A DNA stretch of 64,000 bases, taken from NCBI GenBank assembly GCA_963842525.1, contig CAWJGT010000009.1, forward strand, positions 1,376,001 to 1,440,000, read 5' to 3'. The DNA comes from an uncultured Holophagales bacterium. GTDB taxonomy: Bacteria; Acidobacteriota; Thermoanaerobaculia; Multivoradales; UBA5704. Numbering within the stretch: position 1 is the first letter of the stretch; each line of letters begins with the position of its first letter. Below the pieces are notes generated by a model. The model was not told the DNA's origin, made no database searches, and was given only the letters and a program-made list of their open reading frames with translations. A program made the translations under genes and the position numbers. This document shows, piece after piece, positions 1-15,000 of this stretch.

Positions 1-3000
1 CTGGCTGAGGCGCTGCTGGTGCGCGGCGTCGAGCTGTGGAACGTCTACGGCCCGACCGAGACCGCGATCTGGTCCGCGGCCGGCGAGGTGCTCTCCGAAG
101 AGGCGCCAGTCCGGCTGGGCCAGCCGCTCGACAACACCCGTTTCTACGTGGTGGACCGGAGCTTCCATCTCGTACCCGTGGGCGTGCCGGGAGAGCTGTT
201 GATTGCTGGCGATGGCGTGGCCCGCGGCTACTTCAAGAAGGCCGATCTCACAGCAGAAAAGTTTGTGGCCGACTCCTTCTCGGGCGAGCCCGGTGCGCGT
301 CTCTATCGCACGGGCGACCTCGTCCGCTGGCGGCGGGGCGAGTTGGAGTTCCTGGGCCGCATCGATCACCAGGTGAAAGTCCGCGGCTTCCGGATCGAGC
401 TGGGCGAGATCGAGGCCTGCCTGGGACGGCATCCGACGATTGCCCAGGCAGTGGTCACAGCACGCGGCGAAGGCGGCGAGAAGCGGCTCGCCGCCTATCT
501 GGTGGCAAGGCAGGGCGAAGCCGTGCCCGGCATCTCGGAGCTGCGCGCCTTCCTGCAAGAAACCCTGCCCGACTACATGGTCCCTGCCGTCTTCGTCGTC
601 CTGGACGTCCTGCCGCTGAACCCCAGCGGCAAGGTCGACCGCAAAGCCCTCCCGGAGCCCAATGCCGCCGCCTCCGCCGAGTACGTGGCGCCGCGGGGAG
701 CGACCGAGGAGCGGCTCGCGGCGATCTGGGCCGAGGTGCTGCGAGTGGAGCGGGTCGGCGCCGAGGACGTCTTCTTCGATCTGGGCGGCCATTCGCTGCT
801 CGCCACCCGGGTCATGTCCAGGGTGCGCCAAGCCTTTTCCGTGGATCTGCCGCTGCGGCGGCTCTTCGAGGCGCCCACCGTGGCCGGCCTCGCCCGCGCC
901 ATCGACCAGGCGCTGGGGGAGGGGAGCGAGGATGCGGAGATTCCGCCGCTCGTCCGCCTGCGGCGCGACCGCGAGCGGCTCTCCTTCGCCCAGGAGCGGC
1001 TCTGGTTCTTCGAGCGCCTCCACCCGGGGACAGCCACCTACAACCTGGCGAGCGCTCTGCGCGTGGCCGGCGCTCTCGACGTCCAGGCCCTGACCCGCAG
1101 CGTGAACGAAGTCGTCCGCCGCCACGAGTCGCTGCGTACGACGTTCGATGCCACCGGGGAGGAGACGGTCCAGGTCGTCGCCCCGGAGCTCGTCCTGGGC
1201 CTGCCGGTGACCGACCTCCGTCCTCTCCCCGAGGACGAGCGGGAAGCCGCGGCCGAAGCCCGTGCGCGCGGAGAAGCCTCGCGGCCGTTCGATCTGGGCA
1301 AGCCAGGGGGGTCCGCTGCTCCGCGTCGCGCTGCTGCGGCTCGCCGACGCCGAGCACGTCCTGCTCGTCACCGTCCACCACATCGTCAGCGACGCCTGGT
1401 CGGTCGACGTGCTGATCCAGGACATGGCGACGCTGTACGTAGCCTTCTCCCAGCGGCGGACCTCGCCCCTTCCGGAGCTGCCGGTGCAGTACGCCGACTA
1501 TGCGTCCTGGCAGCGGAGCTGGCTCCACGGCGAGGCGCTGGAGCGCCAGCTCGCCTATTGGCGCGGCCGTCTCGCCGGCGCGCCGGCCGTCTCCGAGCTG
1601 CCCGCCGACCGGCCGCGGCCGGCGGTCCAAACCTTCGCGGGAAGCGATCACGCGTTCACCGTCCCGGGCGCCGAGAGCCGGGCCCTGCTCGACCTCGTCC
1701 GCCGCGAGGGGGTGACTCCCTGGATCGCCCTGCTCGGCCTGTTCCAGACCCTGCTGCACCGGTATACCGGCCAGGAGGACCTGGTGGTCGGCTCGACCAT
1801 CGCCGGCCGCGACCGCCGTGAGCTGGAGCCGATGATCGGCTTCTTCGTCAACACCCTGGCGATGCGGGCCGACTTCGCCGGCGCGCCCAGCTTCCGCGGC
1901 CTGCTGGGGCGGACGCGCGAGGCAGCGTTGGGTGCCTTCTCGCACCAGCACCTCCCGTTCGAACAGAGTGGTGGAAGAGCTGCGGCCGGCGCGCGACCTG
2001 TCGCGGACACCGGTCTTCCAGGCGGTCTTCCAGCTCCAGAACACCGCGCCGCTGCCTGCAGCTCCCGGGGCTCGACCTGAGCCCGGTGCGCACCGGCACG
2101 CGGACCGCCAAATTCGATGCGGTGCTCAACCTGTTTGCCAGCGAGCTGGGCCTCTCGGGCTTCTGGATCTACAACACCGACCTGTTCGACCGCGCCACCC
2201 TGGAGCGGCTCACCGGCCATCTCCGGATGCTGATCGCGGGCGCGGCGGCCGAGCCCGACCGGCCGCTGGCCGAGGTGCCGCTCCTCTCCGCGGCCGAGCT
2301 GCGCCAGCTTCTGGTGGAGTGGAACCCAGGCCCGTCGCTGACCGCGGAGCCCGAACGGTTCACCCTCCACGAGCATTTCGCCGCCTGGGCCGCGGCCACG
2401 CCGGGCGCGCCCGCCGTCAGCTTCGACGGCGTGACGCTGACCTACGCCGAGCTGAGCCTGCGGGCCAACCGTATCGCGCATTTCCTGATCAACGCGGGTG
2501 TGCGCCCGGGTGACCTCGTGGGCCTCTACCTCGACCGTTCGCCGGCGCTGGTGGCCGCGATCCTCGGCGTGCTCAAGGCCGGGGCCAGTTACCTGCCGCT
2601 CGATCCGGTCTATCCGGCCGAGCGGGTCGCCTTCGCGCTCGCAGACAGCCGGGTCGCGGTCCTCCTCACCCAGGAGAGCCTGGCCGGCAACCTGCCGAGG
2701 GACGGCGCCTGGGTGCTGCGGCTCGACGCCGATGCCCACCTGTTCGCCCTGGAGAGCGGCGACGACCCGCGCGTCGAGGTCCCGCCGGGCTTCCCGGCCT
2801 ATGTCATCTACACCTCGGGCTCGACGGGTAAGCCCAAGGGCGTGATGGTGACGCACGAGAACGTCGCCCGCCTCTTCACGGCGACGGACGGGTGGTACGG
2901 CTTCGGCCCCGACGACGTCTGGACGCTGTTCCACTCGTACGCCTTCGACTTCTCGGTCTGGGAGCTGTGGGGTGCGCTCCTCTACGGCGGCCGGCTGGTG

Positions 3001-12000: not shown

Positions 12001-15000
12001 GCTCGGGATGGTCAAGTCCTTCGAAGAGGCGCGGATCGATCAGATTTTCTTCCATGAGGACCATACCTTCAGCCGCCGCGAGGTGGCCGAAGCGCTGTGG
12101 GTGCTGGCGCAACGCAATACGCTCGATTTCCTGGCGGCCGTGCCGGCCGCGCGCAAGCACACGGTCGTGTTCGAGGAGCTGCTGGGCGATCCGGAGCGGG
12201 TGCTGCGCGGGATCTGCGACTTCCTTGGGATCACGTACCACCCGGACATGGCCGAGCCGTACCAGAAGAAGTCGTCGCGGATGACGGACGGCCTGCACGA
12301 CGAGTCCCGCATGCTGGGTGACGTCAAGTTCCACCAGCACGGCCGCGTCGAGTCCACGGTCGCGGAGAAGTGGCGCGAGGCGTACAGCGAGGAGAGCCTG
12401 GGCGAGCCGGCGCGCACGATGGCGGTCCGGCTCGGGTACGAGCTGCAAGGCTTCGTCCCGATCCCGCGGCTCGGCACGACGCCGGGGACTCCGTTGCCGG
12501 TGGCCTTCTCGCAGGAGCGGCTCTGGTTCCTCGACCAGCTCGATCCCGGGCAGTCGACCTACAACGTCCCGGCTGCTCTGCGTCTGCTCGGCCGGCTCGA
12601 CGTGACTGCTCTCGCCGGCGCCCTGGGCGAGGTGGTGCGCCGGCACGGCTCGCTGCGCACGACGTTCGCCGAGGGGGATGGCCGGCCGGTGCAGATCGTG
12701 GCGGCGGCGGTTCCGCGCCTCCTGCCGGTCGTCGATCTGTCAGGTTTGCCGGAGGAGCTGCGCGGCGACGAGGCGCACCGCCGGATCTCCTTGGAGATTG
12801 GCCGGCCGTTCAACCTCGGCCGTGGACCGCTGATCCGCGCTCTGCTCCTCAAGCTCTCCGGCGACGAGCATGCCGCGGCCCTGACGATGCATCACATTGC
12901 CAGCGACGGCTGGTCGATGTCGCTGCTGATCCGCGAAGTGGAAGCGCTCTACGAGGCCTTTGCGCAGGGGCGGCCTTCGCCTTTGGCCGAGCTGCCGATC
13001 CAGTACGCCGACTTCGCGGTCTGGCAGCGCGGCTGGCTGCAAGGCGCGCGGCTGGAGCAGGAGATCGCCTGGTGGCGGCAGCGCCTCGCGGGCGTGGCAC
13101 CTCTCGACCTGCCGACCGACCGGCCGCGTCCGCCGGCACAGACGTTCCGCGGCGCCAATGTGCCGTTCCCGATCGACGGTGGTTTGAGCGATGCGGTGGC
13201 CGGGCTCGCACGGCGCGAGGGTGCCACCCTCTTCATGACGGCCATGGCGGCCTTCGTCGTCCTGCTGCGCCGCTATGCCGGCCAGGATGACGTGTCGGTG
13301 GGAACGCCGAGCGCCAACCGCACGCGGCGCGAGATCGAGGATCTGATCGGGTTCTTCGTCAATACGCTGGTCGTCCGCACGGACGCTGCGGGCGATCCGG
13401 GCTTCCGGGGTCTGCTCGGCCGTGTGCGCGAGGCTTCGGTGGGGGCCTTCGCGCACCAGGAGGTGCCGTTCGAAAAGGTGGTGGAGGAGCTGCGGCCGGA
13501 GCGTGATCTTTCCCGTCCGCCGCTGTTCCAGGTGATGTTCATCCTGCAGAATGCCCGCTTCGAGCCGCTGGAGCTGCCGGGCCTGACGCTGGCACCGCAG
13601 GACTTCGAAACCACCACGGCCAAGCTCGATCTGACGCTGTTCCTCTTCGAGAATCCGCAGGGGCTCTCCGGTGCCATCGAGCTCAACACCGACCTCTTCG
13701 ACCGCTCGACGATCGAGCGCATGGCCCGGCACTTCCAGGTGCTGCTCGCCGGTGCCACGGCCGATCCCGCGGCGCGGATCTCCGAGCTGCCGCTGCTGAC
13801 CGGACCGGAGCGCGCGCAGCTCCTGGAGGGCTGGAACGCCACGGAGGTCGAGCGCCCGCACGGCCTGCTGGTCCATGAGCTGTTCGAGGCGCGGGCGGCG
13901 CGGACGCCCGAGCGGCAGGCCGTTGCGTTCGGGGGCAAGACCCTGACCTATCGCGATCTCGACGAGCAGGCGAACCGGCTGGCGCATCACCTGCGCGGGC
14001 TCGGCGTTGGGCCGGAGACTCTGGTCGGGCTCTGCGTGGAGCGTTCGGAGCGGATGGTGGTGGGCCTGCTCGGTATCCTCAAGGCCGGCGGTGCCTATGT
14101 GCCGCTCGATCCCACGCATCCGGCGGAACGCATCTCCATGGTCCTGGAGGATGCGCAGGTACAGATCCTGGTGACGGACGACTTCCTGGACCAGATCGCG
14201 GCCGAGCGGATCGACCGGCCGGAGCGGTGGACGGACGAGGAGAGCCTCGCTTATGTGATCTATACGTCGGGCTCGACCGGCCGGCCCAAGGGTGTACAGC
14301 TTCCGCATCGCGCGGTCGTCAACTTCCTGCGCGCCATGGCCGCGCGGCCGGGCTTCGGACCCGATGACGTGATCCCGGCGCTGACGACCCTGTCATTCGA
14401 CATCGCGGGATTGGAGATCTATCTGCCGCTGATGCTGGGCGGCCGGATCGAGGTGATCTCGCGCGAGGAGTCCGCGGACGGCCGGCGTCTGGCGGAGCGG
14501 ATCGCTTCGTCGGGCGTGACGGTGATGCAGGCCACGCCTGCGACCTGGCGGCTGCTGATCGATTCCGGCTGGGAGGGCCTCGCAGGTTTGAAAGTTTTGT
14601 GCGGCGGCGAGGCCTTGCCGCGGGATCTGGCCGATGCGATCCAGGCCCGCGGTGCGGACCTGTGGAACGTCTATGGCCCCACCGAGACCGCCATCTGGTC
14701 GGCGACCGGGCCGGTGGGGGAGGGGCCGGTCCGGATCGGCTCTCCGATCGACAACACGCGTTTCTACGTGGTAGACCCGGCCTGCCAGCTTGTGCCCGTG
14801 GGCGTGCCTGGCGAGCTGTGGATTGCCGGCGACGGCGTGGCCCGCGGCTACTTCCGGCGGCCGGATCTGACGTCTGAGAAATTCATCGCCAATCCCTTCT
14901 CGGGTGAGCCTGGAACGCGGCTCTACCGGACCGGCGACCTCGTCCGCTATCGCGAGGATGGGTCGATCGAGTTCCTCGGCCGCATCGATCACCAGGTGAA

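Follow-up and report, generated by a model that had tools for sequence, protein, structure and literature searches.

Why would the threonine and serine modules of a nonribosomal peptide synthetase (NRPS) each carry a sulfotransferase (ST) domain? This question is raised by a stretch of 64,000 nucleotides (the window) from the genome of an uncultured Holophagales bacterium (assembly GCA_963842525.1, contig CAWJGT010000009.1, positions 1,376,001 to 1,440,000), in which two elongation modules have the domain order condensation (C), adenylation (A), thiolation (T, or carrier) and ST. Both ST domains are homologous to the ST domains of CurM and of olefin synthase (OLS), and in this genome and its relatives such domains are tied to one type of carrier domain and to hydroxy amino acids. 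On the basis of sequence comparison, we propose that each ST is active and probably, if by no means certainly, O-sulfates the carrier-bound residue on line, with the sulfate being retained in the product.

The Thr module, which like the other parts of the NRPS described here lies on the + strand, begins with a C domain (973..2412) that is distributed over three frames, with our own C profile matching at 973-1314, 1256-1972 and 2029-2412 and with breaks near 1300, 1964 and 2055 (tblastn). Its A domain (2437..3843; Pfam AMP-binding and AMP-binding_C) has the specificity code DFWSVGMVHK and is followed by a special T domain (3907..4098; Pfam PP-binding, residues 608-671 of the open reading frame [ORF] 2086-7485) with the sequence GGSSITG...NRLQQELGEIV, the attachment-Ser codon of which is at 3988. 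The first ST domain, of the CurM type, spans 4201..5097 according to our own profile and matches Pfam Sulfotransfer_3 at 4261-4899 (E 2.6e-27), with PRSGSTLL at 4285, PPELELL at 4345 and VDKTP at 4570. It is followed by a C domain with the motif HHIVSDG (5173..6570; Pfam, own profile and PDB matches), which is of an ordinary, LCL-like type, and by a Gly-type A domain (6595..7921), the code of which reads -ILQLGVIWK once two pieces are joined across a one-base break at 7049 inside the sequence GTTCGAAC. This break falls within the span occupied by the two ST modules (2350..12440). The Gly module ends with an ordinary T domain, GGHSLLA (7988..8176; Pfam PP-binding, residues 303-365 of ORF 7082-16789).

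The Ser module consists of a C domain (8237..9634; Pfam and own profile), an A domain with the code DVWHISLVDK (9659..11167; alignment and own profile), a special T domain, GGNSITG (about 11237..11428, as delimited by comparison with the first cassette in an alignment; Ser codon at 11318), and the second ST domain (11522..12430 according to our own profile; Sulfotransfer_3 at 11600-12241, E 6.9e-28), in which PRSGSTLL is at 11618, PPELELL at 11678 and VDKTP at 11903. The C domain after this ST lies at 12494..13918 (own profile), and both STs of the window are followed by C and A domains. Specificity codes were read from an alignment anchored on A-domain core motifs, and this alignment gave the same two codes as the initial annotation, which had also described the C-A-T-ST architecture that the Sulfotransfer_3 matches now bear out, an intact PRSGSTLL in each ST, and a distinct type of T domain in front of each; elsewhere in the window, every T domain is of the GGHS(L/I) type. 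The window has 13 modules with an A domain, including a truncated one, and two of these modules carry an ST. Given that a Gly module separates the two ST modules and that three Gly modules and a module with the code DTEDIGTIVK follow, the proposed order G-T-G-S-G-G-G-X holds as well.

The genome contains 16 matches to Sulfotransfer_3, seven of them within open frames of 1887 to 8098 amino acids. In all seven T-ST cassettes of the genome, the ST stands behind a carrier domain that reads GG(N/S)SI..A...N.LQ, and the cassettes are 56-65% identical to the first. A profile made from these seven cassettes matched the CurM ST in the PDB (4gbm) with an E value of 1.4e-85 over chain residues 26-316 of 323, and the OLS ST (4gox) with an E value of 2.1e-83, so that CurM, which had been named as a precedent for an in-cis ST, is indeed a close one. 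No NCBIfam model reached its cut-off for the cassette, with NoeE scoring 48 bits against a cut-off of 500.

In the alignment of the seven cassettes, the mean column identity of which is 69%, no variation is seen in PRSGSTLLR, in the Glu of PPE or in the Lys of VDKT, and these align to the same residues of 4gbm. The loop that binds 3'-phosphoadenosine 5'-phosphosulfate (PAPS), the Glu and the Lys are also at least 80% conserved in each of the Thr, Ser and Tyr groups among 99 STs. The corresponding residues of CurM are R39, T43, E60 and K133. The STs are CurM-type domains that, from their sequences, are probably active; a gene for an adenylylsulfate kinase, a source of PAPS, is found elsewhere in the genome. 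One position differs. CurM and OLS have PPELHLL, whereas all seven cassettes of the genome have PPELELL, and the Thr, Ser and Tyr groups have this same sequence as their 80% consensus. An aminoacyl thioester differs from the CurM substrate in having an alpha-ammonium group, which the Glu in place of the CurM His might contact.

Carrier type and amino acid specificity

Relatives of the cassette are encoded by 553 stretches in public genomes. The counts given here for related loci refer to the best 71 of these stretches, all of them from metagenome-assembled genomes of Acidobacteriota (with Thermoanaerobaculia, Holophagales, Blastocatellia and Pyrinomonadaceae among their record titles), which together with this genome yield 101 distinct cassettes. 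In a sample of 301 genomes from the phylum, at least two matched at an E value of 1e-100 or better, a lower bound given that at most five candidates were scored per genome. The initial annotation had suggested a co-evolved T-ST cassette, and the wider sample agrees: an ST follows 64 of 66 carrier domains of the GGNSI type and 0 of 183 of the GGHSL type.

Of the 101 cassettes, 83 had an upstream A domain with a readable code, with 44 being of the Thr type, 19 of the Ser type, 16 of the Tyr type and four of other types. The search for further Ser and Thr modules with a T-ST pair was productive, and it extended the set to Tyr. Module counts included all A domains that were followed by a sufficient length of sequence. 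This genome has an ST on two of 14 Ser modules, three of 14 Thr modules, none of four Tyr modules and one of 138 others; the corresponding figures for the related loci were 18 of 19, 44 of 47, 16 of 16 and one of 53. The link between in-cis ST domains and Thr and Ser modules, as first proposed for the window, thus holds there and generalises, in that 83 of the 85 ST-bearing modules in this genome and the 71 related loci have a Thr, Ser or Tyr code. Within this genome, the ST follows five of 32 Ser, Thr or Tyr modules and one of 138 others (Fisher p 9e-4).

A tree of 99 STs placed all 16 Tyr-linked domains in a single clade (support 0.991), together with two STs of unknown code, and this clade is nested among intermixed Ser- and Thr-linked STs. 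In the stretch HA(E/W)SRML, the Tyr-linked clade has Trp and the other STs have Glu. Both the clade and the residue swap are expected of an ST that has as its target the side chain of the residue in its own module. In the relatives, up to three ST modules are consecutive, as in L026 (Thr-ST, Thr-ST, Tyr-ST) and L027 (Ser-ST, Tyr-ST, Tyr-ST). Runs of two or three were seen in these two loci and in L042 and L030, the run in L030 being followed by Gly modules. From the order of these modules, we predict clustered sulfates in the corresponding products.

Fate of the sulfate

In the mechanism that we propose, the A domain would load Thr or Ser onto the dedicated carrier domain, and the PAPS-dependent ST fused behind this carrier would then sulfate the beta-hydroxyl of the tethered residue. 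An ordinary C domain downstream would transfer the sulfated chain, which would place sulfation ahead of this condensation, and the sulfate ester would stay in a Gly-rich segment of the form ...Gly-Thr(SO3)-Gly-Ser(SO3)-Gly-Gly-Gly-X. Carrier-bound L-Thr corresponds to a (3R)-3-hydroxyacyl thioester, the type of substrate on which the CurM ST acts, with an additional amino group at C2.

Of the alternatives, the one that survives best is that the ST serves activation: it would turn the beta-hydroxyl of Thr or Ser into a leaving group, and elimination, spontaneous or aided by the C domain, would give dehydrobutyrine or dehydroalanine, or a nucleophile would displace the sulfate and close a small ring. 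We consider this unlikely, although several points favour it. Two STs, those of CurM and OLS, are known to be activating, with their sulfate being lost, and these are the closest relatives of solved structure; the target hydroxyl is beta to the thioester as in CurM, and a sulfate at this position is poised for elimination. The ST always stands in front of a C domain or a thioesterase (TE), with the order ST-C-C, the mark of an epimerisation domain, being found after none of the 101 cassettes, and about half of the C domains that follow an ST (43 of 81) belong to one clade.

Retention is nevertheless favoured by five observations. First, an aryl sulfate on Tyr cannot eliminate, and yet Tyr-linked STs exist: 16 of the 83 readable cassettes stand behind Tyr-type A domains, and their STs are nested within those of Ser and Thr modules. 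Second, Tyr-ST and Thr- or Ser-ST modules adjoin in single assembly lines. Third, C domains that follow Tyr-, Thr- and Ser-linked STs share clades, and the one behind the first ST of the window resembles ordinary C domains. Fourth, some relatives have the order T-ST-TE, and the TE tested is nearest to an NRPS TE. Fifth, in the parts of the reports available, the sulfated glyceric acid made by the in-cis STs of DysB and OciA survives in the product.

The third of these points rests on the following data. The next profiled domain in the same open frame is a C domain for 90 of the 101 cassettes, the remaining 11 including five with T-ST-TE. The C domains after an ST are distributed over more than one clade: the largest group contains the 43 mentioned above and another 21 that are not preceded by an ST (64 in total, support 0.958), and its members have Thr-ST, Ser-ST and Tyr-ST donors in mixture. 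A clade dedicated to condensation after an ST was looked for, and the tree contains none that is exclusive to ST-preceded C domains. In a PDB search with the C domain behind the first ST of the window, Txo2 was the best match (1.4e-105), followed by Txo1 and TycC, whereas an entry described as a special condensation domain came lower (1.9e-68); the comparison with dehydrating C domains relies on these PDB matches. The avoidance of epimerisation domains was also considered as a clue to the fate of the sulfate and was dropped because it has no power: such domains are rare here in any case, with C-C orders of this kind in four of 128 modules of the genome and none of 112 in the related loci, and their absence after the ST is therefore weightless.

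For the fourth point, a protein that ends in T-ST-TE on a Ser or Thr module was seen in five relatives (L058, L055, L062, L073 and L068). The TE of L058, the one of the five that was compared, is closest to the NRPS TE 4zxh, and an entry named for CurM was absent among the 46 matches listed.

Several considerations weigh against retention or against the scheme as a whole. Apart from the activating nature of the nearest solved relatives and the lability of a beta-sulfate, the STs have Glu in place of the CurM His two residues after the catalytic Glu. The majority of the Ser, Thr and Tyr modules of this genome (27 of 32) lack an ST, and the pooled statistics overstate the association, because the presence of an ST was the criterion for selecting the loci and because the sequences are not independent of one another. 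The names of the substrates assigned to A-domain codes, including Thr, Ser, Tyr and Gly, are presumed from the Stachelhaus table. About ten frame breaks lie inside domains of this copy of the NRPS and, if real, would mean that the gene is dead here. There are also exceptions to the rule, with one cassette following the code DIWEITADDK, one following DLKNFGTDVK and one lying in a C-T-ST module that has no A domain. Two atypical cassettes are in this genome, L083 (C3:1429175-1429825) and L082 (C19:502255-502896); one of them follows DIWEITADDK and the other is in the module without an A domain. If DIWEITADDK is a diaminobutyrate-like code, as we take it to be, that cassette would be expected to carry out N-sulfation.

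A variant of activation would accommodate the Tyr-linked domains as well. The STs of Ser and Thr modules would be installers of leaving groups that lead to dehydroalanine, dehydrobutyrine or a small ring (aziridine or beta-lactam) on the carrier, with the Tyr clade being a later, purely decorating offshoot. We likewise judge this variant improbable; if it were true, such an ST would be the sulfate-driven counterpart of the phosphorylation and glutamylation that operate in ribosomal lanthipeptides. The two outcomes differ in their consequences: retention predicts a family of strongly anionic peptides, whereas activation would constitute a new route to dehydro-amino acids.

The assembly line and its frame breaks

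A single NRPS line on the + strand, in DNA with a GC content of about 70%, starts before the first base of the window and ends with a TE near 41663 (Pfam and own profiles); NRPS-like sequence extends upstream of the window to about position 1316756 of the same contig. The codes of its first gene read, in order, Gly, Thr (with ST), Gly, Ser (with ST), Gly, Gly, Gly and DTEDIGTIVK. The part of this gene behind the second ST module and its downstream C domain (13943..24985) thus comprises the three Gly modules and the DTEDIGTIVK module, and its last domain is a T domain with the acidic tail EEEEEDRLAG before the stop codon that ends at 24985. The first domain of the next gene (TTG at 24977) is an Ala-coded A domain, which no C domain precedes. 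Given that one gene ends in a T domain and the next begins with an A domain, the Gly-rich line has no obvious domain for hand-over or release.

The second NRPS gene encodes modules with the codes Ala, Tyr and Ala, a truncated A domain, and a DIFHFGLIIK module, followed by C and TE domains. Its Tyr-coded module (A domain 28973-30094, code DASTVAAVCK) is without an ST. In the module at 33716-35633, the A domain (35103-35633) retains only profile positions 300-469, its NH2-terminal two thirds being absent, and the module may be skipped or dead. At the end of the line (39345-41663), an extra C domain (39345-40775) immediately precedes the terminal TE of the downstream NRPS gene or genes (40893..41663; Pfam Thioesterase, residues 2308-2564 of ORF 33972-41681). 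A gene for a penicillin amidase or PvdQ-like acylase comes right after the TE (41522-44437; Pfam E 1.2e-205, with NCBIfam PvdQ far under its cut-off), which would fit a precursor that is acylated and later trimmed. Farther downstream are a large protein of secreted type (44238-48943) with an IgGFc_binding domain, a weak squalene-cyclase-like repeat and MopE motifs, and then an ORF with an Ntox16 polymorphic-toxin domain. The NRPS load of the 9.95-Mb genome is unusually large, with more than 200 distinct A domains (218 once duplicates are removed).

The frame changes inside NRPS domains, about ten in number, lie near 1300, 1964, 2055, 7049, 16617-16786, 17031, 21717-21741, 21787-21792, 23189-23209 and 33961-34002, and another break is present in the penicillin amidase gene near 43597, at a copy of GTTCGAAC. 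This palindromic 8-mer occurs five times in the window (1957, 7044, 17030, 43591 and 55938) and 207 times in the genome. Four of the five copies in the window lie exactly on one-base breaks, of which the NRPS has three and the amidase has one, and the extra base implied by the neighbouring conserved motifs differs among the four (C, A, T and A). One further break adjoins CTGCAG, and one is in a run of six G. Only 1.1% of NRPS bases are within six bases of a TTCGAA or CTGCAG site; both sequences also occur in other NRPS frames of the genome, where they are not associated with breaks. Soil contigs with 90-95% identity are one base shorter at 1964, 2055 and 7049, each position being covered by a single low-depth contig, and these contigs showed no indel for the break near 1300. 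They were obtained from four soil or rhizosphere runs that hold 5-6% of the sampled words and represent relatives rather than this organism.

The second alternative is that the cluster is a decaying pseudogene and hence unproductive in this organism, irrespective of the role of the cassette in others. The number of breaks within domains over 41 kb, the A domain at 35103-35633 that lacks its first 300 profile positions, and the gene that opens with an A domain in the absence of a C domain would all be natural in a decaying cluster, and other NRPS frames of the genome are unbroken up to 8098 amino acids. A systematic consensus error fits better than random decay, however, because the breaks recur at the same 8-mer with a differing extra base, in one instance in the unrelated amidase, and because the relatives lack the extra base at three of the breaks and the domains are otherwise well conserved (E values down to 1e-220); the break in the run of six G also speaks against decay. 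We therefore regard a pseudogene as quite unlikely. To judge from their sequence context, the breaks look like systematic errors of the consensus, perhaps at a modified motif, rather than gene decay.

Very unlikely, finally, is that the STs are inactive scaffolds or sulfate a target other than the residue of their own module, for example the hydroxyl of a lipid or a different residue: the Glu at the CurM His position, the cassette in the module lacking an A domain and the cassette after a non-hydroxy code would be in keeping with this, but the PAPS loop, Glu and Lys are conserved throughout as described above, and neither the association with hydroxy-amino-acid codes (83 of 85) nor an ST tree that follows the A-domain code for Tyr would be expected.

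Relation to known sulfotransferases

To our knowledge, sulfate esters of Ser or Thr are almost unknown in nonribosomal peptides. AerL, StaL and SslST are separate proteins that act on released or ribosomal peptides and are not assembly-line domains. They resemble the domains described here in that they O-sulfate a hydroxyl of a peptide, with the sulfate being kept, in aeruginosins (AerL) and sulfonated lanthipeptides (SslST) among others, according to the portions of the reports available (PMC10744761, PMC11143521).

SulM of the sulfazecin pathway had been cited in the initial annotation as a further NRPS with an in-cis ST. This example was mistaken, because sulfazecin biosynthesis relies on the free-standing SulN: in the available sections of the sulfazecin paper, SulM is without an ST domain, SulN sulfonates in trans, and SulI carries an adenylylsulfate kinase (PMC11298585). 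SulN shares with the present STs the PAPS-dependent sulfonation of a carrier-bound NRPS intermediate but differs from them in being free-standing and in N-sulfonating diaminopropionate, with the resulting sulfamate serving closure of the beta-lactam by the TE (PMC11298585).

The precedent of the cyanopeptolin starter module, which had also been invoked, stands on the evidence in the accessible part of the relevant report: OciA (cyanopeptolin/oscillapeptin) has an in-cis ST in an NRPS starter module, and its sulfated glyceric acid is kept in the product (PMC2533009). Excerpts of the report on dysinosin describe the same for the in-cis ST of DysB (PMC6520454). As in the window, the ST is located within an NRPS polypeptide beside a carrier domain, a likeness of architecture. 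In OciA and DysB, however, it occurs once, at the start of the chain, and acts on glyceric acid supplied by a GA/FkbH-type domain, whereas here it is internal and recurrent and stands behind Thr or Ser loaded by an A domain.

Full-text literature searches, the coverage of which leaves out most subscription journals, brought up no report of an ST domain within an elongation module for Ser, Thr or Tyr. In the literature covered, in so far as the sources were available, in-line STs of assembly lines have been described only at chain ends, in enzymes of the CurM type and in the starter modules of OciA and DysB that use glyceric acid. The cassette is thus a known kind of domain in a new position, widespread and with a clear link to substrate. 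In uncultured soil Acidobacteriota, many giant synthetases have hydroxy-amino-acid modules that are marked by a portable T-ST unit, and, as judged from sequence, sulfated peptides are the most likely products of this widespread type of module. The cassette may also be of use in engineering, as a part that would direct sulfation to defined sites.

The closest comparison is with the ACP-ST-TE segments (acyl carrier protein, ST and TE) of CurM and OLS. Fold and family, PAPS loop, Glu and Lys are the same, and in both settings the ST is fused directly behind a carrier and directed, here presumably, at the hydroxyl beta to the thioester. CurM and OLS have their ST at the end of a polyketide synthase, ahead of a TE that expels sulfate and CO2, whereas the STs described here belong to NRPS elongation modules in which the carrier is loaded with Thr, Ser or Tyr and a C domain comes next. 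The His of PPELHLL in the former is Glu in the latter, and the sulfate that is expelled there is probably kept here.

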